64,000 bases of DNA, taken from positions 94,652 to 158,651 of IMG/VR virus record IMGVR_UViG_3300047089_000307, one strand, 5' to 3'. The translations under genes and the position numbers were made by a program. This DNA comes from a virus. The notes beneath the pieces were generated by a model that saw only the letters and a list, made by a program, of their open reading frames with translations, did no database searches and was not told where the DNA came from. Of this stretch, positions 12,219-51,820 are shown piece after piece; the stretch's first letter is position 1, and every line of letters begins with the position of its first letter.

Positions 12219-12581
12219 GTGAGCAGGCACCGGGGCCGGATAGGGTTCCGGGGCGGCTGGGCGCTGACGTACGAGGAAGACCGCTGGTGGCCGTCCTGGG
12301 AGAGTGCTTCCCGGCTGCACTGCGTCACCTGGACGCTGGACGACGTGGTCATGACGCAGGCGCAGTACGAGCGGGCCGCCGCCGTCCGGGACGACGCTCC
12401 GTACTGGCTGACCGCCATGGCAGCCGGGCTTGCGATGACGGCCGGGCTCGCGATGGTCAGCGGGATCTTGCTCAGCGAGGCTGAGGCGATGGCCATCCGG
12501 CGCGGCGCTCACCCGCTGACGGTGCTGCTGCCCCGGACCTGGGCCCGGCCGCTGACCCTGGCGGAGATGATGGGTGCATGA
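12219..12581 (+). CDS. paralog array member (ARxLTLxEM family)
   Basis: RGGWAL...RTWARPLTLAEMMGA. Confidence 0.8.
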   Translation: MSRHRGRIGFRGGWALTYEEDRWWPSWESASRLHCVTWTLDDVVMTQAQYERAAAVRDDAPYWLTAMAAGLAMTAGLAMVSGILLSEAEAMAIRRGAHPLTVLLPRTWARPLTLAEMMGA

Positions 12582-16821: not shown

Positions 16822-16847
16822 TCACATCATACTCTAAGAGACTACCT

Positions 16848-18089
16848 TTACCATCCGGCGATAGTCAGTGACCGCTCCGCCCTCGTCACCGCGGTGTACA
16901 GCCACCGGCTGCGCTCGCCAGTTCCGGGCGCCGGCCAGCCCTCCTCAATGACCAGCACCTTCTCGGCCGAACTTCCCTGTGCCTTGTGGGCTGTGAGTGC
17001 GTAGCCATAGTCAAAGAGCGCGACATGACGGTCCCTGACGCAGGATGCCTGGAACTTCGGGTCACCGAACGGCAGCGCTGATACCGTCCCCGACCACGGG
17101 CGGAGGAGGTCCTCGCATTCGATGACAGCCTGGAATGTGGCCTCACTACCGGGCCCTGTTACCCCTCCCACGGCCAGGATGGTCCCGCGCTGACCGTTGT
17201 ACAGGCCCTCTGCGTGGTTATTGCGAAGGCAGGTCACCGTATCGCCGACCTGCGGCGGCCCGGACCGGCCGTGCCACGCGCGCATCAGCTGGTTGTGCGC
17301 TGTCCTTGCGGCGTTAGTCGCGCAGATGATCAGGTCCGCCTCAGCCGGGTGCAGGCCGGCCAGCCCGGACTCATGCTCGGCCATCGTCAGCTTGACCGCA
17401 TCCGGCCCGTACCAGCCGGGCGGCACGTGGCCCTGCTCGCGCGCCCACCGCGCCATGGTGAGGATGGCCATGCCAGACGGGCTTTCCTCGTTCTGCCGGT
17501 GGATCTTCTCCAGCCGGATATCCGGGCTGGCCATCAAGTTGAAGGACGAGCGGACGGGCGGCAGCTGGCCGTGGTCGCCGACCGCCAGCACCGGAACGCC
17601 ATGGCCGGTCAGGTCCTTCCAGAGCTGCTCGGGGATCATCGATGCCTCGTCGGCCACGACCAGTCCGATGCCGGCGAGCGGCTCCGGCGCCGGCGTGAAG
17701 CTCAGCTGGCGGCGCACCGCGCACTCCCAGCCCCGTCCGGCGTGCGCGCGGCACTGAACGTCCGCCTCCTTCATTACCGTGTCACTCTCGGTGCACACCG
17801 TAACCTCACAGGCACGGTAGAGCAGCCGGTGCAGGGTGGACGCATGATCCGGGGGGACGTCACCGGGGAGCTTGCGCCGCAGCACGGACGTCGCCTTACC
17901 GGTGTAGGCGGCGAACGCGATCCGGATATCAGGCAGGAACTGCGGCAGGCAGCAGATCAGGCTAGTCTTCCCGGTTCCCGCCAGCCCGCCCAGGGTCAGC
18001 GGCGGCCAGCCCCCGGCCTCATGCCACGCCAGGATCTGCGTGAGCGCGCGGCGCTGGTCCGCGGACAGGGTCTCCGTCAGGTCAGTCAT
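16848..18089 (-). CDS. RecD/Dda-like SF1B DNA helicase
   Basis: GLAGTGKT Walker A, STLHRLLY, DEASM, GDHGQLPPV, LEKIHRQ, TAHKAQGS, LYTAVTRA; start MTDLTETLSADQ after TATCTT -10. Confidence 0.93.
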   Translation of the reverse strand: MTDLTETLSADQRRALTQILAWHEAGGWPPLTLGGLAGTGKTSLICCLPQFLPDIRIAFAAYTGKATSVLRRKLPGDVPPDHASTLHRLLYRACEVTVCTESDTVMKEADVQCRAHAGRGWECAVRRQLSFTPAPEPLAGIGLVVADEASMIPEQLWKDLTGHGVPVLAVGDHGQLPPVRSSFNLMASPDIRLEKIHRQNEESPSGMAILTMARWAREQGHVPPGWYGPDAVKLTMAEHESGLAGLHPAEADLIICATNAARTAHNQLMRAWHGRSGPPQVGDTVTCLRNNHAEGLYNGQRGTILAVGGVTGPGSEATFQAVIECEDLLRPWSGTVSALPFGDPKFQASCVRDRHVALFDYGYALTAHKAQGSSAEKVLVIEEGWPAPGTGERSRWLYTAVTRAERSLTIAGW

Positions 18090-18112
18090 AGACCCCAAGA
18101 TACCGGTAACAG

Positions 18113-18142
18113 GGCCCGGCACCGAGTGAAACGGCGCCGGGC
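18113..18142 (-). terminator. GC-rich hairpin closing the GGY-NN array
   Basis: gcccggcaccg-agtgaaa-cggcgccgggc inverted repeat next to a half copy of the array repeat. Confidence 0.55.
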
Positions 18143-19753
18143 TCCCGTGCCTGCCTAGCCAGGCCCGTCCTAGCCGAGCCATTCCTGCCGGGGCGGGCCG
18201 CGCCCAGCCCTGCCTAGCCTTGCGACGCCTGCCGAGCCTTGCCCAGCCGCGCCACGCCAAGCCCTGCCTGCCCAGCCGAGCCTAGCCCAGCCGCACCACG
18301 CCTAGCCATGCCTGCCACGCCAGACCTTGCCCTGCCTAGCCATGCCTGCCGGACCTCGCCTCACCTAGCCAAGCCATGCCGCGCCTGCCCTGCCGTGCCG
18401 CGCCGGGGCCTGCCGAGCCTAGCCATGCCTGCCTAGCCGAGCCCTGCCGAGCCTAGCCATGCCATGCCTGCCAGTCCTGGCCTTGCGTCACCCCGCCTTG
18501 CCCCGCCGTGTCCATCCCTTTTACGCCGGATGCTGCTGCTCCCGTGCCTGCCCGGCCACGCCAGACCTCGCCGCGCCTAACCTCACCTGCCCCGCCATGC
18601 CAGACCTTGCCGCGCCTAACCTCACCTGCCGCGCCAGACCTCGCCATGCCCTGCCGTGCCTAGCCGTGTCCATCCCTTTGCGCCGGATGCTGCTGCTCCC
18701 GTGCCTGCCGCGCCGCACCTGGCCATGGCTAACCTCACCGCGGCTGCCGAGCCGATCCCAGCCGTGCCTAGCCGTGCCGGCCCTGACCTCGCCTGCCCTG
18801 CCGCGCCGCGCCTGACCCAGCCAGGCCACGCCATGCCTGCCGCGCCGACGCGCGCCACCCCGTGCCAAGCCACGCCCTGCCTGCCGGTCCCCGCCTAGCC
18901 CCGCCTGGCCATGCCAGCCCGAGCCATGCCTGCCTTGCCAGACCTTGCCTCGCCGTGCCTTGCCGTGCCTGCCCGGCCTCGCCACATCGCGCCATGCCTC
19001 TCCTTGGCCAGCCTCGCCATGCCTGCCCCGCCTGGCCTCGCCGGACCCTGCCCTGCCGCGTCCATCCCTTTACGCCGGATGCTGCTGCTCCCGTCCCTGC
19101 CGGTCCCGGCCTAGCCTCACCGAGCCTGACCTGCCTGACCGCGCCATGACGCACCGAGCCTTACCGGTCCCTGCCTGCCATGCCACGCCACCCCGTGCCA
19201 AGCCCTACCTGCCCTGCCGCGCCGCGCCCTGCCGTGCCGTGCCTCGCCTGCCGCGCCTGGCCCTGCCGCACCGCACCATGCCACGTCCATCCCTTTACGC
19301 CGGATGCTGCTGCTCCCGTGCCGGCCAGACCTGCCGAGCCATGTCGTTCCGCTCCGCGCCATGCCCTGCCTGCCAAGCCACGCCCCACCCCGCCGAACCG
19401 AGCCATGCCTGCCAGGCCGTGCCGAGCCGCGCCTAGCCACGCCACGCCATGCCTGCCGGGCCATGACGCACCGCGCCTTGCCGCGCCACACCGTGCCTGC
19501 CCCGCCTTGCCAAGTCCATCCCTTTGCGCCGGATGCTGCTGCTCCCGTGCCTGCCCCGCCTAGCCAAGCCTTGCCACGCCGCGCCTTGCCTGCCGGGCCG
19601 GACCCCGCCGGGCCGGACCATGCCGAGCCGCACCATGCCGTGCCTGCCGGACCGGACCACGCCACGCCGCACCATGCCGTGCCTCGCCTGCCGCACCAAG
19701 CCTCGCCGGACCCCGCCTTGCCATGTCCATCCCTTTCAGCCGGATGCTGCTGC
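18113..19753 (-). ncRNA. non-coding GGY-NN pentamer array (putative guide-RNA array, VIPR-type vrRNA)
   Basis: Minus strand reads GGC AA GGC GG GGT CC GGC GA GGC TT GGT GC GGCA...; blocks separated by GGCA; 38-nt repeat at 18510, 18668, 19060, 19285, 19514 and a partial copy at 19725; downstream of a Cas7-like gene. Confidence 0.85.
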
Positions 19754-20203
19754 CTTCTTCACCTGCGCCTCGTGCTCGGCGATGACCTCGGCAAGCTCCT
19801 GCCAGAACTCGGGGTAGTCGCGGTACCGCTGGGCCATGGAGCGGACCTCGCGGCGGATGCGCAGCAGGATCAGGCCCTGCTCCTGCGTCGTGAGCGAGGT
19901 GACGCTGGAGTACGTGCCGGGCGGCGAGGGGATGCCGATCATCCGGTCGGCCACGTACTTGCGCATCATGACCGCGCGCTGGCCGCCGGACGCGACCTCG
20001 CGGACGACGGCCACCCGGTAGCTGCGGATCAGGCCGCGGGCCTCCTCCAGGCGGCGCTGCGCCGCGGCGATGGCGTCATCCCAGGTGAACAGCCCGTGCA
20101 GCGCGCTGTCCTCCGGCCGTGCTGCCGCCACGACCTCATCGGCGTGCAGCTTGCCGCGGGAGTCCTCCAGCCCCTTCAGGGCCTTCAGTACCTCATCCCT
20201 CAC
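19736..20203 (-). CDS. accessory protein coupled to the Cas7-like gene
   Basis: GTGA overlap, AAGGAG RBS; LHGLFTWDDAIAA...EARGLIRSY motif; stop codon lies inside the first array repeat. Confidence 0.85.
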   Translation of the reverse strand: MRDEVLKALKGLEDSRGKLHADEVVAAARPEDSALHGLFTWDDAIAAAQRRLEEARGLIRSYRVAVVREVASGGQRAVMMRKYVADRMIGIPSPPGTYSSVTSLTTQEQGLILLRIRREVRSMAQRYRDYPEFWQELAEVIAEHEAQVKKAAASG

Positions 20204-20892
20204 AGGACTATCTCCTTGACCTCGGCGTCGTCCGGCACCCGGAACGTGCCGTAGGAGCCAGTATTGGATTCCTTGCTGGCCGGGCGCCACTCGCCGATGC
20301 CCGCGAAGCCGGCGGCGTCCACCAGCGCGATGACGGACTCCAGCGTCAGCGAGTTGCGCACCCAGACCACCTCCAGCACCGCCGACCACGGCCAGTACTC
20401 CGGCCGGAAGCGGATGTCGGCGACGCCGGTCTCGTTGCGCGCGTAGTCCTGGCGCATCACCGCGGTGGCCGGGACGAGCGCCGACTCCTCGCCGGTCCAC
20501 TCCCCCCAGACGGGGACCAGCAGCGTGCGGTTCGCCTGGTCGGTGCCCGGCTCGCCGTTGACGAAGATCATCCGGCGCAGGTCCGTCATGGGCAGCTTGG
20601 AGCCCTTGAAGAACCGGGCCGCGTCCACGATGGCGGCCTTGAAGCCGACCGAGGGGAACGCGGGGGCGCCGCCGGGGAGCAGGTGCTGGGCGTCGCGGAA
20701 GTTCTGCTCCGGGTCCTTCGGCTGGCGCTCGACGGGCTTGCCCATCTGCCGGTCGAGCATGATCTGCTGGGCCTTGGCGCTGAACTTGTTGGTGATGAGC
20801 GGGGTGAGGCCCTGGACGGGCACCCGGATCATGGAGCGGCCGAGCCGCTGGAGCGAGATCGCGCCCGTGGTGGTGGCCTTCGCTGGGGGCAT
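20200..20892 (-). CDS. stand-alone Cas7/RAMP-like protein (Vipr-like effector)
   Basis: V.GLTPLI, FPSVGFKAAIVDAA, RPEYWPW and C-terminal G-rich loop AGFAGIGEWRP...GSYGTFRV typical of the RAMP fold; no other cas genes. Confidence 0.8.
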   Translation of the reverse strand: MPPAKATTTGAISLQRLGRSMIRVPVQGLTPLITNKFSAKAQQIMLDRQMGKPVERQPKDPEQNFRDAQHLLPGGAPAFPSVGFKAAIVDAARFFKGSKLPMTDLRRMIFVNGEPGTDQANRTLLVPVWGEWTGEESALVPATAVMRQDYARNETGVADIRFRPEYWPWSAVLEVVWVRNSLTLESVIALVDAAGFAGIGEWRPASKESNTGSYGTFRVPDDAEVKEIVL

Positions 20893-21850
20893 CAGGCTTC
20901 CCTTTCTTCTTTACATGGACTGACTGATACCCCACGATACTCTAAGACTGCTATCCTGGACTACATGAGCACTAAGGGCATGAAGGGTCACGGGGGCATC
21001 GATCCGTATGCAGGCAACGGCTGGTCCTCCCTGTACTGCCACGACTGTGAGCAAACCTGCTCCCCGGCTAGCCCGTGCGACCACTGCGAGCCGGAGGTCT
21101 GCACCAGCAAGGGCCGCGTGATCTACCGGGGGCCTGAGCGAGTGCAGGGGACAGGGGGATGGGAGCGCGAGCCGTGAGCTACCAGGGCAGCAACCGCAAT
21201 GACGAGAAGGCACCGGATGAGGTGACGGGCACGCTGCTGGTCACGGTCACCGTATACGGCGGGACGCTGGCGGACGCGGCGACCGCGCTGTCCAGTTACC
21301 GGGGCAAGGGCTGGGGCCGGGAGATGACCGACCTGCTAAATGGCGGGGAGTTCGAGGTCATCGCCGCTGACGTCGCTAAGGACGTCACGGCCGGCGACGC
21401 TGATCCTGACGTCATGAGCGAGCAGGAGCTGCGCGAGGAGATCACCCGGGTCGTCCTCGCGCAGCGAGCAGACTGCGCGGAGCACCCGATGCCGTTCCCG
21501 CGGCCGTCGTGCTGGGCGTGCGCCCGCAACGGGGCCTTCCACCGGGCGGCGCTGCTCGCGGCGGGCCGCTGGCCGGCCGCTGACCCGGTGACGTACGTGC
21601 TGCCCGCTCAGCCGGGCCGCTGGCCGGCCGCTGACCCGGAAGGAGCTGATGACGAGACGGCCGCGCCAGCCAGGCACAAGGCACGCGTGCGCAGCACCGG
21701 CCTGCGCTATGACGGCGTGCGGCTGTGGCGCTGGGCCTGCCCGCACTGGGACCAGGGCCGGAACCGGAACTGCCGCGGCGGCGACTACGGGTCCTGGGCC
21801 ATGGCCGTCCGTGACGCCGTCCGGCACGCCGGGTCAGGCGGCACGGCCTG

Positions 21851-22180
21851 GTGAGTAATCGCCACGGGCTGGCCCGGGACGGCTGGGGGCTGCCCGTCGC
21901 CGGGGACGGCTGGACGCTGACCGTGGAGCCGCTGCGCGGCCGTGACAAGTACGTCCGGTTCGCGCTGCGCGGGCCGGTCGCAAACGTGACGCCCGGCGAG
22001 CGGGCCGCGCTGCGGGTGTTCCAGGCACCGGGCGGCTGGCCGGCGATAGGCGTGGACGGCGGCATCGAGGTGAGCTGGGAAGAGGCGCAGCTGATCCGGG
22101 GCGGACGCGACCCGCGGCACGTGCTGTGGCCGCCGCTGCGGGCCCGGGCGCTGACGCTGGCGGAGATGATGAGCCGGTGA
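21851..22180 (+). CDS. paralog array member
   Basis: GDGWTL...LRARALTLAEMMSR. Confidence 0.8.
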   Translation: MSNRHGLARDGWGLPVAGDGWTLTVEPLRGRDKYVRFALRGPVANVTPGERAALRVFQAPGGWPAIGVDGGIEVSWEEAQLIRGGRDPRHVLWPPLRARALTLAEMMSR

Positions 22181-35119: not shown

Positions 35120-37776
35120 TCCGGGGCCGTCCGGAGGGACTGGGCGTGATGGCTGACTTCCTCTGCCACCTCGCGCCGTCCCTGCGCCCTGGCACGGGAC
35201 AGGGCGACGCGGATCAGCTCGGCTACCCCCCGGGGGACGTAGTCCGGCAGGGTGAGGACGACGACCCCGTTCTCCGGGGCGGTTCCCTCGAAGATGACCC
35301 ACTCCGGGCGCTCCCGGTCCCGGTCCAGGTAGTACCTCATTTTGCCGGCCCGTCCAGGCTGTAGCGCCCGCTCAGGCGCTCGGGCAGCGTGGAGATGAAC
35401 TCGGCGGCCTCCAGCTCGGTGTCAAAGTCACCCAGGACGATGGCCTGTACCCCGGTGCCGGATTCTCCCGGAACGCGGGCCTCCTTCCAGTCGCAGACGA
35501 CGTACGGTTTCATGGCTGGTTGCTCTCTCATGATCCTTCCCTTCTCTCAAGCCTGCCGCCGAGCTGTGCCTGGCGCAGGCCGAACTGGTAGCCGCAGCGC
35601 AGCCCGCAGAAGCAGTCATCGGCGTAGGCGCCCAGGCCGGCAGCGGGCCGTACGGCGTAGCTGAGGCCCTCACGTTCCATGCGCCCGGTGTCCAGGACCG
35701 TGGTCCGGCGCAGCCTCCGGCCGCACCACAGGCACGTGGCCGACTGGCCGGAGTACCCGAACGGCTGCCGGTCGCCGCTCATGACCGTTCCCCGGACAGG
35801 GTGTCGATGACCGCCTGGGCCTCCGGGCACGGCCACGTCCGCCGCTGGCCGCCCTTGTCCCGGCACTGGCATGTCATCCACGTCCCGTCCCATCCGTGAT
35901 GCTGCTCCGGCTCGTGGAAGGACAAGGCGGCCAGCAGCGCCGCGGCGACCGTCTCCTTCGGCAGCTGCGCGAGCAGCTGGTCATAGTGCAGGACGGCGGT
36001 GGCCTGCGGTGGCCCTTCCCGGCCCGTGGCCGGGCTGGCCCTATGGCGCCTGGCTGGCATCGTCTTCCTCCTCGTTGAAGAACCCGGTTTCCGCGAGCTG
36101 GATCAGCCCTTCCAGGTCGATGGTCCCGTTGCGCCACGCGGCGGCCAGGTTCGCGGCCTCGTAGTCCATCAGGACCACCCGTGCAGGCTGCGCCCGGTGA
36201 TGCTGATGCCCTGCACCGCGGGGGGAAGCGCGTTCCCCGTTTCCTGGGTGAACCGCGCCCCGGCCCGCAGGGCGGCCTCCGCCTTGTTGCGGGCCTTGAC
36301 CCAGATCGTGAACCTCTTCCTCTCGCCACCCGGCGGGCCGTAATCGAAGATGACCGTGTAGCCCCTCACGACGCGGCCTCCGTGTCCTCGCGCGGGAGCT
36401 GGCCGGCCTCGGCTTCCGCTGCCGCCTGCGCCCGCTCCCGGGCCTGGGCCGCCTTGTGCTGGCGGTGCTCGTACAGCGTGGGGACCACCCCGCCGTCGTC
36501 CTTGTGGGCCTGCGCCTGCGCGAGCACGGCGGCCCGCAGCGACCTGGGCAGTCCCGCGACGGCGCGCTGGACCGACTCGGAGTAGCACCACCAGCAGAAC
36601 TTCGGCTGCTTTCTTATCTCATTGACGGCCATTATCCTTCTCCTCGTGAAAACGTGACGTGCCGGGGAATCCTGCGCGCGGACAGGGACAGGGATTCAGG
36701 GACGACTCCCTCGGTGCGTGAGTCAAGGTCCAGCCGCAGTTTCCATCCGGCCAGGAAAAGCGCTGACTCCTTGCTGAGCGCCCGGACGGTAAGGACGATC
36801 TCCCGCCTGTCCGGGCGGTTGACGTTCACGCGGAACGCAGCCGTTACCTGATAGGTGAACAAGCTCATAGCCGCAGCGCCTGCGTCATCCCCCAGGCCCT
36901 GACTTCCTCTTCGGTGGGCTCTCCGGGGGATATGACCTGGTATTCATCGGCCCACCAGCGGCGTTTTGCCGGCTCCGTGGCGAGAAGTTCCCGGATGGCG
37001 TGCTCCAGCTCGGCGACGGGGCGCTTCTCCTGCATTTCCTCGTGGCTGCGCGGCATGTACCACGCGATAAGGATGTTGGCCACGTCCTCGCGGGTCAGGG
37101 ACCACGTTGTCCGGACGTGCGCTATCTTCTCGGTGCCCCTCACCCAGTTAAACCTGATTGCCATTCTCCCCCTCCTTTCCCGGCTTTTCGTTCGCCTTCC
37201 GGTTGTCTTTCCGGGTGCGCCGGTTATACCAGTACGCGCTGGCGTCGATGGCCCCGGGCAGCAGCCGGTCAGCGACGTCCGTGAGGAACCAGGCCACGCT
37301 GGAGACGGCGAACCCGAGCGGGAACAGCGCCGCGCGCACGGGCAGCGGCCAGCGCTGCTGCCAGTACGACGGGAACTCCGCCGCGCCCTCCCTGGCCTCT
37401 TCCTGCCAGCGCTGCGCCCGGTACGCCAGCTCCTGCCAGCTGCGGGTGACGCGGTAGGACACCCACCGCCAGTCCAGCCAGCGGATCATGTACGGCAGCA
37501 CGACGACCTGGCACTTCGGGCAGCGGTACAGCCGCCAGCGCCACAGCGGCAGCATGCCGTCCTCGTCATAGGTCTTCAGGTAGCCGCTGTCGCAGCGCCG
37601 GACCCGGGCGTAGCGCAGGCCGCCGCCTGCCCACCCGGGGCAGCGCCGGAGCTTGTCATAGCACGGGCGGCTGACGCGGAATCGCGCCGCGGGGCCTTCC
37701 ATGCTGCCGGTGAGCATTCCCAGGACCTGCGATCCGGTGAGCTTCCCCGTGTCGGAGACAGGCTCGTTTTCCTCTG

Positions 37777-38517
37777 TCATGGTGCGTAGTTCCCTTCCCT
37801 GATGCGCGTGACGTGCGCGTAGATGACGGTGCCGTCCGCGCCGGAGTCAAAGGATCGTTCCCCGGTGTGGTGCGTGAACTGGTAGTCGCCGGGCGGCACG
37901 CTGATGACGGTGTCGCCGTAGCCGAGTGCCAGCGCGTTCCCGCCCCGCGAGGCCCAGTCCTCGAAGTCGGCGATGCTGTAAGCCCACAGGTCAGTGCAGG
38001 TCTTTGCCAGCAGCGTCCAGCCCTGCGGGGTCGCCTCCTCCTGCGAGAGCCCGGTCTCGCCGTCGCCCGGGTAATAGTCCAGGCTGGCGATGGCGTAAGA
38101 GTCCCCCCCGGTGCTGAAAAGCCCCGGCGAGGTGTTGCCGACCGGGCCGAACGCGCAGCCGGCCCGCTCCATGGCCACCATCGCCTGGTGCTGGCCGAGG
38201 AGGGAGTTGTAGCTGACGGTCAGGTCCCCGGCCTGCCAGTCGTAGACCGGGCGCAGGCTGTCGCTGACGATCAGCTTCCCGGACGGCACCGCCAGCGTGA
38301 CGATCGTGGTGATGCCGCCGGCGTACGGGCACGGGCCCTGCATCCAGGCGGCGTCACCGGCAATCCGCAGCCAGGGGGAGGCGTCGCAGGACTGGCACGG
38401 GAAGGGAAGCTCCGGGGAGAACGCGCGGCCGAAGCCGTCATCCTCGATGATCATGATCACCTGGCCGTCCGGGACGCTGAGCAGGTGCCCGTTCGCCCGG
38501 AAGATCATGCGCTTCAT
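37777..38517 (-). CDS. hypothetical protein
   Basis: 246-aa ORF, typical codon usage, coupled starts and stops. Confidence 0.7.
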   Translation of the reverse strand: MKRMIFRANGHLLSVPDGQVIMIIEDDGFGRAFSPELPFPCQSCDASPWLRIAGDAAWMQGPCPYAGGITTIVTLAVPSGKLIVSDSLRPVYDWQAGDLTVSYNSLLGQHQAMVAMERAGCAFGPVGNTSPGLFSTGGDSYAIASLDYYPGDGETGLSQEEATPQGWTLLAKTCTDLWAYSIADFEDWASRGGNALALGYGDTVISVPPGDYQFTHHTGERSFDSGADGTVIYAHVTRIREGNYAP

Positions 38518-41500
38518 GAGCTGTCCTCTCCCTCGTTGCCTGCCGCTATCCCGGGAAGGCCGAATGCCGCGATATGACGTGCTATGGCCAGGTCAAGGGC
38601 GGTGAAGTCGTCTTCGTTCATGGGCAAAGTCCTCTTTCTTGGTATTTTGCAGTATAACCCTGACCGGGCAAGGGAATGCCCCGTACCCGGGAAACGGGCA
38701 CGGGGCACTCGGCTAGCGGGGTCAGTTACCGTGCGGGCTGCCAGCCAGGGCAGCCGCAGCTGCATTCCGCGGTGCTGCTGTGCACGTGGCCGCAGGCAGC
38801 GCATGCGGGGGCGGCGGGCGGGGTCATGGTGATCGCTCCTCCTCTCCTGTCTCAGTAGTGGCGGCGCCCTGGGTGAGGGCGTCCAGGACCAGGTTCCGGG
38901 CGGCTAGCCGGGGCAGCAGCGCCGACACGGTCAGGTCCGTGATCGCCTCGCCCCAGTAGTACGGGCCGAATACCCGGCCGGGCAGCCGGGAGAACTCCAG
39001 CGTGACGCGCTCCCCCCGGTAGGACCGGGCCCGGGTGACGGTGACGGTGCCCGCGATCATGTCAGTCAGCCTCGGGGCCGTCATCCTCGTCCTCCTCGCA
39101 TTCCGGCGGCTCCAGGTACTCCGGGTGGTCCAGCGGGGGCCTGCCCGCATCCCAGCCCAGCAGGGCCCTGGCCTCAGTCACCAGGTCGTTGTAGGTCTCC
39201 CAGGCGCGGTCGTTCTCCACCACGTAAGCCCGGCCGTCAGCCGTGGTGCCCTCGTTGTCCAGTCGCAGGGCCGCGATGCCCATGATGAACCGCAGCGCCT
39301 CCTGCGCGTCCAGGCGGGTGAAGTCCAGGGCTGAGTGCCCGTCCGCGCTGCGCAGGCGCGTGGCGTCAGTCGTCATTGCCGTGCCTCCTGTCCTCGTGCG
39401 GGCACGCCCCCGCCCAGCTCCGTACCCGGGCGATGAGCAGCTCGTTCCACCGCGCGCTGCCCTTCTCCGGCATTTCCTCGCCCTCGTCCAGGTCGTAGCC
39501 ATCGATATCGGTGCCGGCGTACTGGGCGATGATGATCTCGTCCAGGCTGGCTCCCGGGTGGTCCAGCAGGTGCATGACGCTGTTGACGGCCAGGTTGAGG
39601 ATGTCGTCCTGCGCGATGGTCTCGCTGGATTCACCCTCGTGCTCCGATAGCAGGCTGGCGGCTGCGTTCAGGGCCGCGGAGACTTGCTCGCGGGTGTAGG
39701 CCAGGGTCGTTCCCTGGCTCGCCAGTGCGGCGACCCGGGCGAGCAGGCTGAGGTAATCCTCGTGCCCTGCCCGGGTCCCGCCCGGGTTATCGCGGAGCCA
39801 CTCGCCGAATGCCTTGGCCATCAGGCTTCTCCTTCCCTGCGCTCCGGCCGCGGTGCGCCGCAGTTACCGCAGGTGCCGTCTTCCACGGGGCTGCGGTAGC
39901 CGCACGCGTGGCCTTCCTCCAGGCGGTTGCGGCATTGCCAGGCGAACCTGGCCTTGTCGAGGAGCTGGTCCAGGGTGTCTGACTCGTAGTCGTCTGCGAC
40001 GTTCCGCAGCCGGCCCAGGATGCCGCCCGGCTCCCATGGCCCAGGCCCTGCTGAGGCCACGGCCACGTCCGTCCATTCGGAGGTGTCGTGGTTCCCGTAG
40101 TTGGCGGCGTCATCAAGCGCGAATTCGACGGCGCTGAGGATTCCTGCCTCATCGGTTCCGTCCGGGGCCTCGACTGTGACCAGGATTGCCTTCTTCATCT
40201 CACTCACCTCCCGTCAGCGTGACGCAGCCGGCGCTGTTCCCGTTGGCGTCCAGGATGAGGGCGCGGAAATCAGGGATGACTGCCCAGGATTCCATGTCGT
40301 CCTCCATGCGCTCCACGACCCGGGTGACGGTGCGGTACACGTCGTCTTTCGTGATCATGGCGTCATCGCCGAGCGTGATGCTGATCTCAAGTTTCCGTGG
40401 CATTTTTCCTTTCCTTTCAGGTAGCGACGTCCAGGGTTACGAGGACTATGTCGTACGAGCAGCCGTCAGGTGCCTCCGCTGACGTGTCCTTCCACGTCAG
40501 CGGGTTTACTCCGTTTTCGTGCTCCTGGCAGGCGGTGCGTGCCTTCTCTTCGTCAGAGAAGCCGCCTATTACGCCGGATTTATGCCCGTCCGGGTAATCG
40601 TGCAGTGCAATGTAGATATCCATCTCTTCTCTTTCTCTTCTTCAGGCTGAGTGCCTGCGACCGCGCACGGGAAATTCCCGCCCGCGATCGCCAGTGCTCA
40701 GTTACTTTTTCCTGGCCTCGTCCGCCTCGCGGGCCAGGGCCGTGTCCTCGGGGCCGTCCGGGTCGTACCCCCCGGCGGTGAGCCACGCGAGGGCGCGCTC
40801 CCGGTTCGCGCCGCGGTCCTTGAGCATCCGGAACGCCTCGCGTACCGGCGTGGAGTACCCGCCCTGGATCATGACGGCGTGCATGGCCGCCTTCTCCGGA
40901 TCGTGGAATCCCAGCTCGTCGGCGAAGAAGCCGCCAAGCTCGTCAGCGAAATAGCCCATTCCCATTCCCATTCCCATTCCCATTCCCTTGTCCCCTTTCT
41001 CAGTCTCCGTGCGGGTGGACCAGGATGGCGACGATGGCCAGGGCCTGCCAGTGGTCCAGGCCGGTGATCACCGGGATCAGGCCCCGGTCACAGGTCAGCT
41101 CGCTGACGGCGTAGCCGCGATCTCCGGTCAGGGCAGCGATCAGCGCATTCCCGTGCACGCGCCATTCCCTTTCATGCGGGTGACCCGGGCAGTGGGCGGC
41201 CCCGCATTCGCAGGGGACTGCGGGGTTATCGCAGTCGTCTACCTCGCAGGGAGCCGGGCCTGGGCGGTGCAGGGTGCTCATCGTCCCTCCTCCTCCTCCT
41301 GCGCCTCGATGGCGTCGGCCAGGGCCGTGAGCACGGGCAGCGGGTCCCGGTCGGTGAGCGCCAGCAGGGCCGCGGTCATCACGTCCGGGCTGGCGCCGCT
41401 CAGCAGGAGCAGCGCCTTGGCCCGGGGGTGGCGCAGCGGGCTGCCCGCTACCGGGTCCTTGTCGCCCTTGCGCCAGACCGGGAGTACCAGCGCGGTGCGT

Positions 41501-45967: not shown

Positions 45968-46507
45968 TCCAGTTAAAATACACTCTGGGCGCGTGCGTGA
46001 ACTCCAGCGATCCCAGCGTGCCGTCTGACTTGCGCGAGACGACCACGTACGGCGCCTGGAATCCCAGCACGTCGAATTCCTCTTGCAGCTGCTCGGTAGT
46101 CCACGTCTGCGTGGGCCATTGCCGGCTCAGGTCCCGGTGCGCCTGCGCGGCCTCGGGGGACTCGAACATCTTGCCGTCGCTCATGCGCCTGCCTCCGGCT
46201 TCTTCACGTGCCCCTGGAGGAGGAGCATGGACGCCGTGCGCCCGTAGCTCCCCTGAAGCTCCCAGGCCAGGCCGCTGTCCACCAGCTCCTGGAAGAAGGC
46301 GATGATCTCGTCATCGCTCATCTCCCCGTCCTCGTAGGCCATGATCTTGTCCACTAGGTCGTTCTTCACCGCGCTCACGGGATTGCCCTTTCTGTCTCTT
46401 AGAGTATCTTGCCTCGTCCCTGACGGGACAGTGAAGCGCCCGGTCCCTGGCGGGGGACCGGGCGCTCGGACTGCCGTGTCAGCAGTGACGTGGTATCTTG
46501 GAGTCTT

Positions 46508-46603
46508 AGTATGCGGTTGGGCAGGGCATGGCAGGACATGGGCTGGTGCGGCAGGCACGGAGAGCAGGCCCGTTTTCCTGAGTACGGGGAAGCGGGCCTG
46601 CTC
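46508..46603 (+). ncRNA. orphan GGY-NN unit (putative single guide RNA)
   Basis: TATCTT -10, then AGTATGC GGT TG GGC AG GGC AT GGC AG GAC AT GGG CT GGT GC GGCA GGCACGGAGAGC plus hairpin. Confidence 0.7.
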
Positions 46604-46608
46604 CTGTG

Positions 46609-47913: not shown

Positions 47914-50269
47914 TGCAGAGGAATGTCACGCCATTCAGCGTCACTTCCTCGTAGGAGGTTTCCAGGAGACCGTCCTGGAGATCCCGGGCGAACCTTTTCG
48001 CTCGCCAGTACGGGGTCTCGGTGGCTTCTCCGTAGGCATCGTGGCTGCGGTATTTCGCGTACGTTGCCCAGTAGCTCTCGCGGACAACGGAGTCAGCCTT
48101 GCCGATGGCCGCGCGGAAGTCTCGCAGTTCCCTCAGCTCTTCGCTCAGCCCGGCGACTTCGTCTAGCGCGCCGTCATCCTGTCCGCCGGCCAGGAGCAGG
48201 AAGATCCTCGCCCGGATTCCGGTGACTCGCTCGTCCACGTCACGGGCGTACAGGATGTCCTCGCGGGACAGGTCGTGAATGTCCTTTGCCATGTGCCTTT
48301 CCTCTTCTCTCAGGCGCGGTTGAAGGCGACGAACCACCCGTTGCCGTGCGTGTCCTCGCGGGAGCAGTACTCCTGCGCGCTTTCCAGCGTGACGTTCTCT
48401 GCTATCAGCAGCTTTTCTTCCCCGGAGCGGAAGACATGGAGGTTCCGGTCGCCCGTTCCTTCTTCCGGTACGGCAGGGAGCCCGTACTTCGCCAGCACTT
48501 CGCTTTTGCCCACTTCTCCTTCTCTCTTTGCCGTGCCCTGACCGGGCGGCAAAGCGCCCCGTGCCTGGTAACCAGGCACGGGGCGCTCGGGCTGGGCGGT
48601 CAGTAAGCCGGGCCGAATACGGTGTCGTCCCAGCGGTCGGTGAACAGCTTCTCGTTCTCCTTCAGCTGCTCGCGCGCCCGGCGCAGTTCCGGCGACACGT
48701 AGTCCGGGTCGCCGTGCGCGCTGAGTGCGGCCCGGTTAGCCTCCCAGTCCGCCTGGTCAATGGCAGACCATGCCTGCGGCTGGTGACCGCTGGCCAGGGT
48801 CTCGCGAACCTCGGCTATGGCTGCGCGTGCTTCCCTGGCCTGCTCTTCCGTGAGCCCGTGCCAGGGTCGCTCCTGCTGCTCCGGTGACGGCCTGAGGGGC
48901 TGCCGCCGGGGCACGCGCATCAGCGGCGCGCACGACCTGCCGTTCGCCAGGCATTCCGGGGCGACCCGGCTACTGCACTGGCACCGGTCAGGCACGGACG
49001 GAAGCTCGCTGAACTGGTTCCCGGTCTTCTCGTGGAAGTCGGCCGCGTCCCGGTAGCCCCAGCTGGGACCGGTGGCCGCGCCGAACCGCGCGCCGGGGTC
49101 GGCGGCGAATATCTCCGCCATGAACCAGCCCCACTCATGCCACGTTGCCGCCCACACCGCCTCGCCGCGTGCCCGCTCGCTGGCCGCGCCGCGGTTGCCG
49201 CTGTTCTTGTACCGGCGCACTCGCAGGACCTTGCCGTGCTGGTCTCGCGTGCCGGGCGGCAGGGAGTGCTTGTCCAGCGTGCCGAGCTGCACCTGCACGG
49301 AGCGGGCGTGCGTCCGCGATGGCCGCGTGGCGAACGATGCGGTGAACACGATGTCCGGCGTTGCCAGGCCGGCCGCCTTCACGCGGTTCAGCGCGCTGTG
49401 GACCTGCTGCTCGGACAGGCTCGTGTAGAGCCTCACGAGATTGCCCGGCCTGGCAGCGTGCCAGCCTGGCGCACCGCTGGCGACACGTAATCCGGGTCCA
49501 GGTACGGGTCGCCTGGCCGCAGTGCCTCTTTCATGGCCTGCCACTGGACGAGCAGTGCCAGGAGCCCTACCTGAATCCGCTTGCGCAGGGTCCACTCGAT
49601 CATTTCCCTTTCCTTTCTGTGTGATTCGTTGCGTGATTGACCGGACAAGGAAGCGGCACCGGCTCGCTTGCGCGAGGCGGTGCCGCTCGGCTAACCAGGT
49701 CAGGTGGTGGCTTACGGGTAGTGGTAGGACGTAATGGTCTTCAGGCCCATGGATTCAGCGACCTCCTCCAGGGCGGCGGCGTAGCCGTCCCGGTAAGCCG
49801 GGTTTCGCCATTCGGCGCTCTTCTCGGCCTCTCGCAGGGCGGTCGTCATCGCCTCCGCCAGGCTGGATAGCTGGTACTCGGCTGTGTCGGCCATGCTCAT
49901 GTCGTTTCCCCCTCTTCGATAGCCGGCACCGGAAGCGGCTCGCCCCGGTACGTCCCGATGAGCGAGTACCGCCAGTTGATGTGCTGCGCTGTGTCCGGTA
50001 GCCTCACGGGCGGCCCGTCCGTCCCGAAGTAGGCGGCCGGGCTGCCGTAGCTGGCGATCCGGATGTCGCCGGCGTCCCGGTGAGACAAGTCGTGGTTCTG
50101 GAAAACGGCCACGCCGTCTCCGCGGGCCAGCCACTGGTTGACCTTCCCGGTGATCTCCCCGGTTCCCTCCGGCCCGTATTCCTCGAAGAGGCAGGCAGCC
50201 AGTTCTCCGGCGGTGAATTCCGTTGCCATGGGTTTTTCCTTTCTCAGTATCTTGCGGTAGTATGGAGGG

Positions 50270-50344
50270 AGTATGCGGTATGGTTTGGCCAGGCAAGGTC
50301 AGGTGAGCCCTGGCGGGGCCAGGCAGGCGTGGGACTCCACCTGG
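50270..50344 (+). ncRNA. orphan GGY-NN unit (putative single guide RNA)
   Basis: TAGTAT -10, then AGTATGC GGT AT GGT TT GGC CA GGC AA GGT CA GGT GA GCC CT GGC GG GGC CA GGCA GGC GTGG-GACT-CCAC. Confidence 0.75.
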
Positions 50345-51820
50345 TCACAGCACGTCTGTGGCCAGGTGGTGGCCTAGCCTGAGTGCGTTGGCCATGACGG
50401 TCAGCGCAGGATTCGTTGCTCCTACGGACGGCATGAACGAGCTGTCCGTGACGTACAGGTTGCGCACGTCCCAGGTCTGGCAGAACGGGTCCAGAACGGA
50501 TGTTGCCGGGTCGGTGCCGAATCGCAGGGTCCCCGCCTGGTGGGCCACGGCCGTCAGCGGCATCATCTTGCGCAGGAACAGCGCGTCCACGCCGGAAGCC
50601 CAGAGCATCTTCTTGGTGGCCGCGTACAGCTGGTGCGCCGCGCGCTGGCTCGTCTGCGTGACCGACAGCCGGATGGTGCCGTCAGCGTCCAGCGTGACCC
50701 GGTTCTCCGGCCGGGGCAGGTCCTCGGTGGACAGCCAGAAGTCCAGCGCGTGCGCGGCGACCTTCTCCAGTGACCAGCCCGGGGCCAGCGCGGCCAGCCG
50801 GGACTCGCCCCTCATGGCTTCTGCTGAGCTTTTTCCCAGCATCTGGATGCAGCCCAACCCCTCGTTGTAGAAATCGTTGATGCATAGCGTCTTCTGGAAG
50901 ACGGTCGGGTTCGGTTCTGGAGTAATGGCCATGACCGCTTGCGACAGGTGGGACATGTAGTTGCGTCCTACCTGTCCAGAGCTGTTGGCCAGTCCTGACC
51001 GCAGTAGGATCGCGGCGCTGTTGACCGCGCCGGCCGCCAGCACGATGATGTTCGCGCTGTGCAGCTCGCGGTATTTCTCGCCGTCCTCGTCCGTGCGCAC
51101 TACGTCCACCCAGCGTGCCTGGCCTCCGGGGGCTATGATGCGCCTGACTCTCGTATTCGTCATCAGCGTGACGTTGTCCATCCCCAGCAGCGGGCGTACC
51201 GCGACCGTCTCCGCGTCGCTTTTGGCTCCCAGCTGGCAGGCGAACCCGTCGCAGGTCCCGCACAGGATGCAGCCCTTAGCCGTCAGCACGCCGGCCGGCG
51301 CGTGGAACGGGTGGTAGCCCGCCCGGGTCAGGTCATCGGACAGCTGCTGGATGCGCGGCTCGTGCGGGACGGCCGGCAGCGGGTACTGCCTGCTCCAGCT
51401 TCCCTCCGTGGGGTCCTCACCGTGGTGCCCGCGGACGGAGTACATCTGCTCGGCCTCGTCGTACCATGGCCCCATGTCGGTGTAGCCCAGCGGCCACGCA
51501 GGGGAGATCCCGTCTGTCTCCTGGCGGGCCTCGAAGTCACGCGGGCGCAGCCGGAACAAGGCTGCGCCGAACAACTTGGTGGCTCCGCCTACGTAGTAGT
51601 GCGCCTGCGGCTGGAATGGCTTCCCGTGCTTATCGCGCCAGGTGTCCTTGCTGACGTACCGGCCGTTGCCGAACACTTCCTTTGCGTCCCAGTTCTCCGG
51701 TTCGCGGGGCAGGAATCCTCCGCGCTCGATGATGGCGATCCGCTTGCCCGTCTTTGCTAGCACGCTGGCCAGCGTTCCGCCGCCGGCCCCTGAGCCGACG
51801 ATGATGACGTCGTAGTGCAT
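50345..51820 (-). CDS. GMC-family FAD oxidoreductase
   Basis: DVIIVGSGAGG, VGGATK, LAAGAVNSA, VGRNYM.H, AHQAGTLRFG, NPALTVMANALR. Confidence 0.93.
   Translation of the reverse strand: MHYDVIIVGSGAGGGTLASVLAKTGKRIAIIERGGFLPREPENWDAKEVFGNGRYVSKDTWRDKHGKPFQPQAHYYVGGATKLFGAALFRLRPRDFEARQETDGISPAWPLGYTDMGPWYDEAEQMYSVRGHHGEDPTEGSWSRQYPLPAVPHEPRIQQLSDDLTRAGYHPFHAPAGVLTAKGCILCGTCDGFACQLGAKSDAETVAVRPLLGMDNVTLMTNTRVRRIIAPGGQARWVDVVRTDEDGEKYRELHSANIIVLAAGAVNSAAILLRSGLANSSGQVGRNYMSHLSQAVMAITPEPNPTVFQKTLCINDFYNEGLGCIQMLGKSSAEAMRGESRLAALAPGWSLEKVAAHALDFWLSTEDLPRPENRVTLDADGTIRLSVTQTSQRAAHQLYAATKKMLWASGVDALFLRKMMPLTAVAHQAGTLRFGTDPATSVLDPFCQTWDVRNLYVTDSSFMPSVGATNPALTVMANALRLGHHLATDVL

Follow-up and report, generated by a model that had tools for sequence, protein, structure and literature searches.

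A probable VIPR system with an unusually large, six-cassette guide array in an uncultivated phage genome

Viral Interference Programmable Repeat (VIPR) is an RNA-guided DNA-silencing system related to CRISPR (clustered regularly interspaced short palindromic repeats), first described in April 2026 (bioRxiv 10.64898/2026.04.26.720920 and 10.64898/2026.04.26.720927). The experiments were conducted on Escherichia coli and Pseudomonas systems, and later studies have dealt with structure, with satellites together with solo vrRNAs, and with the recovery of such systems by a genomic language model. The guides combine a constant GGY with a variable dinucleotide (NN), and the target is read as NNx, with one base skipped. 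Cryo-electron microscopy (cryo-EM) has revealed one Vipr protomer per pentamer, with each GGY gripped jointly by two adjacent protomers, and the GGY-recognising residues of the SUSP1 Vipr are R138 in the thumb and D177, W178 and R179 in the G-loop (10.64898/2026.04.26.720927). Solo vrRNAs of SUSP1-family phages and satellites are guides located away from vipr that have their own promoter and terminator (10.64898/2026.10.15.759431). In this study, a candidate VIPR locus was analysed in a 64,000-nucleotide (nt) stretch, hereafter the window, which comprises bases 94652-158651 of the 158,651-bp IMG/VR virus record IMGVR_UViG_3300047089_000307 (68.8% GC; CheckV completeness of approximately 75%). 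The record is that of an uncultivated, high-GC phage, probably an actinophage. The protein, array and layout features by which VIPR can be recognised in a sequence were found at this locus, and with a probability of roughly 90% we regard it as a complete VIPR system. VIPR is already published, and the locus is a further example that is notable mainly for its unusually large array of six cassettes.

The locus lies on the minus strand of the viral record in the order GTCT-TAGAGTAT box, vipr, vap, a 1.57-kb non-coding tract, a hairpin and a Dda-like helicase gene (coordinates are those of the window unless stated otherwise). It is minimal, with vipr and one vap gene in a viral genome. The vipr gene (20200-20892, minus strand) encodes a 230-aa RAMP protein that is predicted to bind guide RNA. 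The vap gene (19736-20203, minus strand) encodes a 155-aa accessory protein and starts at a GTG overlapping the vipr TGA stop (GTGA), by which the two genes are translationally coupled. The vrRNA array extends from 19724 to approximately 18153 on the minus strand, and consists of six cassettes with about 36 blocks of NN-GGY units punctuated by GGC-A-GGY. A first-pass annotation, made from the letters alone, had described a 230-aa RAMP-like protein with a GIGEWRP..GSYGTF loop and a GTGA-coupled partner of 155 aa, and both were recovered at these positions, with the RAMP/Cas7 fold assigned to the former. The same annotation had named VIPR as the likely identity, and the locus agrees with the published systems in the homology to SUSP1 Vipr, the conservation of the GGY-recognising residues, the vap gene and the array.

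Vipr belongs to a large family, with 122 matches in a word-indexed search (identity down to 34%) and 2332 cluster representatives at E ≤ 1e-3 in an exhaustive search, and it matches phrog_4652. A 57-member Vipr profile was compared with the PDB sequences, and the sole hit was 36pp_D, 'SUSP1 Vipr protein' (E 2.3e-9), in an alignment that covers the thumb strand and G-loop, namely only the C-terminal approximately 60 residues. The 230-aa Vipr was also placed in the RAMP/Cas7 fold. The GGY-recognising residues of SUSP1 map onto the window Vipr as R138 to R163, D177 to E201, W178 to W202 and R179 to R203; the two arginines and the tryptophan are identical, and the change from D177 to E201 is conservative. 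Among the 57 homologues, R163 and R203 never vary and E201 and W202 seldom do (conservation of at least 90%), and the entire GIGEWRP...GSYGTF stretch is invariant or nearly invariant. No counterpart of SUSP1 H17, K33 and K82 could be mapped in the window Vipr, and searches of Vipr and Vap with Pfam and PADLOC returned nothing. With the exception of Gordonia phage ODay, all relatives fetched have a partner gene after vipr, with lengths of 145-163 aa; the gene next to vipr in ODay lies beyond the array and was excluded from the Vap comparison. The Vap of the window and gp52 of Mycobacterium phage Saal are homologues (hhalign 97%, E 6e-11), and Vap is, as a tentative assignment, probably a DNA-binding helper.

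No cas1/2/3/5/6 genes, Cas5/Cas6, large- or small-subunit genes or CRISPR repeats were found at the locus, in line with the first reading of the sequence; a Cas12f-like gene and a CRISPR array lie approximately 55 kb before the start of the window and are described below. The identity of the RAMP protein as a Class 1 CRISPR-Cas effector was rejected, because neither a CRISPR array nor partner cas genes stand beside its gene.

The array tract has a 5-nt period. It holds 270 GGY triplets, of which 199 successive spacings are exactly 5 nt, compared with 17.2 ± 4.3 (maximum 33) in 200 dinucleotide-preserving shuffles; spacings of 4 nt occur 35 times, compared with 18.4 ± 4.2 in the same controls. 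A greedy parse yielded 233 perfect NNGGY units, near the roughly 250 same-strand pentamers first estimated, and the autocorrelation of G peaks at lags of 5, 10 and 15 (0.53, 0.46 and 0.42). The Y of GGY is C in 158 and T in 30 of the 188 perfect units inside in-phase blocks. The 4-nt GGY-N-GGY steps, almost always GGC-A-GGC, split the pentamer run into 36 blocks, the first of which is exactly the pentamer string that had been quoted as an example at the outset. Twenty-six of the 36 blocks are clean and in phase with 6-10 units (13 blocks of 7, 9 of 8, 3 of 6 and 1 of 10). Block lengths are quantised at 35 or 40 nt, and Tandem Repeats Finder independently reported periods of 34, 39 and 44 nt, which correspond to 7, 8 and 9 units minus one base.

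Two solo guides were detected on the plus strand, 26-30 kb from the main array. Solo vrRNA 1 (50258-50372) is composed of a TAGTAT box, a AGTATGCGGT start, nine pentamers (NN: at tt ca aa ca ga ct gg ca), GGC-A-GGC and a 14-bp hairpin (z -2.7). Solo vrRNA 2 (46507-46605) carries a GTCT-TAGTAT box, seven pentamers (NN: tg ag at ag at ct gc), GGCAGGCACGGAGAGC and a 19-bp hairpin (z -6.6), and shares an almost identical 3' end with the array and the cassettes. Apart from the array and these solos, the whole record contains no clear pentamer run; one further run of 4 units is probably due to chance. The array end and both solos have GGC-A-GGC-RY-GG(G)A plus a long hairpin in common, and the internal guides have only GGC-A-GGY. 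Given that seven to nine units followed by GGC-A-GGC are self-sufficient in the solos, each block of the array was read as one guide.

The transcription of the locus was considered from its promoter-like sequences. TAGAGTAT stands after GTCT approximately 45 nt upstream of the vipr ATG (20937-20944, minus strand), and occurs six times in the 158.6-kb genome, where base composition predicts about 0.5 copies. GTCT(C)(T) stands directly before five of the six, and the near-variant GTCT-TAGTAT precedes solo guide 2. The other TAGAGTAT or TAGTAT boxes are located at 16829-16836 (minus strand), 46400-46407 (plus strand) and 46507-46512 (plus strand, TAGTAT variant) of the window and at 12253, 74972 and 85522 of the genome. 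A scan with the sigma-70 consensus detected no promoter, and the box was found by direct motif search. The GTCT-TAGAGTAT box is likely the promoter of the vipr operon, and the TAGAGTAT/TAGTAT box probably represents a phage promoter class. As there is no copy of TAGAGTAT inside the array, the array appears to be co-transcribed with vipr and vap.

The tract is partitioned into six cassettes by six copies of GCAGCAGCATCCGGCnnAAAGGGATGGAC, a 29-nt leader that repeats the 3' end of vap. Copy 1 spans the vap stop codon (19725-19753, minus strand), and copies 2-6 are at 19514-19542, 19285-19313, 19060-19088, 18668-18696 and 18510-18539 on the same strand. The internal cassette junctions all consist of GGCAGGCACGGGAGC followed by AGCAGCATCCGGCGYAAAGGGATGGAC. 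GGCAGGCACGGGAGC also forms the 3' end of the array as a whole, with the terminal hairpin after it, and AGCAGCATCCGGCGYAAAGGGATGGAC corresponds to the 3' end of vap together with the leader. No significant fold was detected for the junction element itself (z 0.02). The GC-rich hairpin directly past the last GGCAGGCACGGGAGC (18109-18148, minus strand) has a minimum free energy of -42 kcal/mol (z -4.2), a stability reached by 0 of 200 shuffles, and is a putative terminator or 3' cap. No Rfam family was matched at E ≤ 1 over 17900-21100, and hence no hammerhead or other known RNA was recognised in this interval.

Because each junction fuses the 3' end of an array to the vap end and leader, duplication or capture of whole arrays at the conserved vap end is suggested, and the six cassettes would be six whole arrays joined head to tail. 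Neighbouring guides also resemble each other. The three most similar of 325 guide pairs are all neighbours with 79% NN identity, and the mean identity of adjacent guides is raised (permutation test, p = 0.03), which fits either local duplication followed by NN divergence or guide sets aimed at allelic targets. From junctions composed of GGCAGGCACGGGAGC and approximately 29 nt of vap end plus leader AGCAGCATCCGGCnnAAAGGGATGGAC, we propose tentatively, and with less than even confidence, that VIPR guide sets may grow without Cas1/Cas2. Recombination at the vap end would duplicate whole arrays or bring them in from related phages, and inside the cassettes tandem duplication and NN mutation would give new guides; with CRISPR alongside, such a phage would hold two RNA-guided systems.

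The locus resembles Type II VIPR (SUSP1 and a Pseudomonas fulva prophage; PDB 36pp) in its lone RAMP protein with G-loop and thumb and the residues R and D(E)-W-R, its small downstream vap gene, its GGY/NN guides, its viral genome and the lack of self-targeting. It differs in scale and packing: about 36 guides in six cassettes are present here, compared with four vrRNAs in SUSP1, and unlike in SUSP1 the guides abut through GGC-A-GGY with no pseudoknot tail between them. The legend of fig. S18 in 10.64898/2026.04.26.720920 describes 'staggered' vrRNA arrays that lack a spacer or tail, in which the next start is the prior end with a 1-nt offset. The window array probably has this architecture, with which its GGC-A-GGY step agrees as far as the legend describes it. 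In that paper, small-RNA sequencing confirmed only the other two array architectures that it names, and its available text makes no mention of six concatenated cassettes that keep vap 3'-end remnants. The solos of the window sit in the vipr-bearing genome itself, unlike those of SUSP1-family phages and satellites. The Csm3/Cas7 subunits of type III CRISPR-Cas are similar in that one subunit covers a fixed RNA step and the thumb flips bases; however, their step is 6 nt with one base flipped, whereas the VIPR step is 5 nt with three bases sequestered. Type III systems also have CRISPR repeats, Cas10, Cas5/6 and a small subunit, which the window locus lacks, and the published VIPR relatives recognise double-stranded DNA, unlike the type III Csm3/Cas7.

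On the model of the cryo-EM and reporter work on the SUSP1 and P. fulva systems, the locus would act as follows. One operon would extend from the GTCT-TAGAGTAT box to the terminal hairpin and would contain vipr, vap and the 1.57-kb guide array. Vipr protomers would polymerise on the guide RNA, one per pentamer, and the thumb arginine and the E-W-R of the G-loop would grip each GGY so that each NN is presented. The first-pass annotation had assumed that each subunit binds one GGY; the published cryo-EM upholds one protomer per pentamer, but each GGY is shared by two adjacent protomers. The presented dinucleotides would pair with double-stranded DNA read as NNx, every third base being skipped, and the result would be a transcription block. 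The 4-nt GGC-A-GGY steps would break the 5-nt register and would delimit individual guides, mostly of 7-8 units, which specify 14-16 bases. The two solo guides would be separate transcription units that use the same Vipr in trans.

Metagenomic phage contigs with a Vipr of 25-89% identity have the same layout of vipr, vap and array, and their arrays span 0.13-0.63 kb on the same strand just past vap. In the closer relatives among them (L002, L006, L009 and L011), the leader from the vap 3' end, the GGC-A-GG[C/A] punctuation and the terminal hairpin are as in the window. The relative L003 has a 2.1-kb array that is more degenerate. By the same count that gave 233 perfect units here, the largest array among 14 IMG/VR relatives has 116. 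No 5-unit NN string is common to any of the 11 arrays and solo guides compared, and as layout and delimiters are kept, the GGY scaffold is conserved and the NN are hypervariable. A search of the genome collection for relatives yielded two loci.

Isolated phages also encode Vipr. Thirty-three records (27 Mycobacterium, 5 Gordonia and 1 cyanophage) were identified, at 34-41% identity over 84-95% of the length, and all are annotated as 'hypothetical protein'; megablast of window positions 17000-22000 against isolated phages gave zero matches. The Mycobacterium records inspected are Cheoctovirus (e.g. Saal gp51/gp52), and the Gordonia phages include ODay, Ecliptus and UmaThurman. The Cheoctovirus and Gordonia loci have the same GGC-A-GGC punctuation, and Saal has a Vap homologue. 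Saal carries four guides of approximately 11-12 units with GGC-A-GGC punctuation upstream of gp51, beside the immunity region (L004:3585-3835, i.e. NC_023580.1 at approximately 36575-36825), whereas the window array is far larger, has shorter guides and lies downstream of vap. In ODay, about four guides lie downstream of vipr (L005:4610-4800).

The targets of the guides were sought in the phage itself, in its relatives and in public collections. The 26 clean array guides matched the whole 158.6-kb record no better than reversed or shuffled guides at skips of 0, 1 and 2; the best matches had 2-5 mismatches, and a skip of 3 found only the array itself. A six-frame peptide search of the record with 28 guides, solos included, gave 0 hits. 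With exact NNx, the 10-unit guide had 0 hits in IMG/VR and 3 in JGI metagenomes, on contigs of 46-64% GC that were not hit by a second guide. Solo 1, with 18 specified bases, had 3 hits (41-58% GC), and three 8-unit guides had 4, 8 and 12 hits, nearly all on contigs of 27-50% GC and none on a contig hit twice. The exact-NNx hits of six guides in public collections, mostly on low-GC contigs and never from two guides on one contig, were read as chance. Against 25 related loci, the window guides gave only matches with at most one mismatch, at the chance rate, and the solos did not match those vipr genes of the relatives that could be tested. As a side observation among these, the guide at 18584-18550 (GA.TA.GC.GA.CT.GT.CG) has a 13/14 in-frame match (DFADLVR) at L049:4891-4910 and also in L050. 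This match falls close to the 3' end of a gene for a single-strand-annealing protein, a short way upstream of vipr, and is a weak lead at chance level.

One related pair of loci behaves differently. In L009 and L010, whose Vipr is 64% identical, a 10-unit guide, the first full one, is flanked exactly by two 4-nt-step delimiters and matches the phage's own polA at 20 of 20 bases under the 1-nt-skip rule, in frame and with the skip at the wobble position (guide L009:9595-9644 to target L009:8103-8131; L010:3550 to L010:2058). The matched segment, VDYKIQGTAA, covers the conserved QGTAA motif region, and polA is directly upstream of vipr. The match was reproduced by 0 of 100 shuffled guides, with a chance expectation of approximately 1e-7, and two of the guide units are degenerate (GTC and GTA for GGY). 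It therefore indicates that, in this clade, the NNx code applies, the delimiters bound the guides and degenerate units count. The idea that the NN spell a gapped target beyond what controls match is supported by this pair, and the window's own guides remained at chance. The discovery paper saw no self-match in the systems tested (10.64898/2026.04.26.720920). Autoregulation, a guide against the polA of rivals, or an assembly of mixed variants may account for the polA self-match.

Several observations weigh against the interpretation as a working VIPR system of the published kind. Decay is suggested by approximately 10 of the 36 blocks, each either short or not in phase. SUSP1-clade vrRNAs have 9-16 units, compared with 7-8 in most of the window guides. 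The published 3' pseudoknot tail is absent, and the array and solos end in GGC-A-GGC-RY-GGGA plus a hairpin. In addition, no natural target for the guides of this phage rose above chance in its own record and the public scans.

The targets are most likely other mobile elements or host loci, and the composition of the NN bears on this choice. The role put forward in the first-pass annotation was the silencing of genes of competing phages or of the host, for which the target searches gave nothing above chance. The NN use all 16 dinucleotides, of which CG (1), TG (4) and CA (5) are the rare ones among 188. Their GC content is 47% in a phage of 69% GC, in which codon positions 1 and 2 have 75% and 54% GC; the polA-matching guide of L009 is at 45%. 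G is rare at the second N (15%), the first N is a purine in 66%, and the first unit past a delimiter begins with A in 19 of 26 guides. Target choice may account for the skew, or constraints that the register puts on the RNA; in particular, it may come from a preference for easily melted target sites or from avoidance of G-runs that would blur the GGY register. Codon positions 1-2 of the phage are considerably richer in GC than the NN, and its typical genes therefore do not qualify as targets. The low GC content of the NN also speaks for guides aimed at host chromosomal genes, such as those of defence or DNA modification, rather than at rival phages, but the decoded guide peptides show no recognisable motif, and we regard this narrower version as unlikely.

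A quite improbable alternative is that the system mainly controls genes of the phage itself, acting as a temporal switch for replication genes, instead of fighting other elements. The perfect match of the first L009/L010 guide to the polA gene next to vipr would suit this role, as would the position of the window locus in a replication module with a Dda-like helicase downstream. However, the 26 clean guides performed no better than shuffled ones against a record that covers approximately 75% of the genome, and the 28 guides found nothing in it at the peptide level. That the tract is merely a decaying simple repeat or a glycine/alanine-rich coding repeat can practically be dismissed, for although mechanical open reading frames of 128-182 aa cross it on the minus strand and some 10 blocks are irregular, a 5-nt period with 4-nt steps cannot hold a reading frame, GGY is fixed and NN hypervariable, the tract is always beside vipr and vap in relatives with differing lengths and contents, and the solo units have their own promoter-like box and hairpin. 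A VIPR guide array is the interpretation retained here.

The locus is flanked by a Dda-like helicase gene and small open reading frames without known function. The former encodes a Dda/RecD-like superfamily 1 helicase (16848-18080, minus strand; phrog_325, E 1.3e-69) and lies directly past the terminal hairpin of the array. It was considered as a vap candidate and ruled out, as the gene 3' of the array differs in every relative. Since it is not conserved beside VIPR in the relatives, the helicase is a neighbour from the replication module, outside the VIPR system.

A second RNA-guided system was observed elsewhere in the genome. A Cas12f-like (type V-F/U) gene is located at genome positions 38000-40039 (L013:1-2040), about 55 kb before the window start, and its protein was recognised by PADLOC as Cas12f (E 1.9e-31) and by the Pfam Cas12f1-like TNB domain (E 3.4e-14). 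The gene passes directly into a CRISPR array with 12 repeats, each 36 nt long, and 11 spacers, one of which is duplicated. This is the genome's only CRISPR array, approximately 75 kb from the VIPR locus. The spacers had no match among isolated phages, and the core of one spacer had none in IMG/VR.

The present locus thereby places VIPR and a miniature CRISPR-Cas12f together in one phage. It also documents an actinophage clade of VIPR that is unannotated in Cheoctovirus and some Gordonia phages, which are tractable laboratory isolates, and offers evidence at the sequence level for the 1-nt-skip code and the GGC-A-GG punctuation in this clade. The array is the largest among the relatives sampled, and its cassette structure hints at how a guide repertoire may expand.

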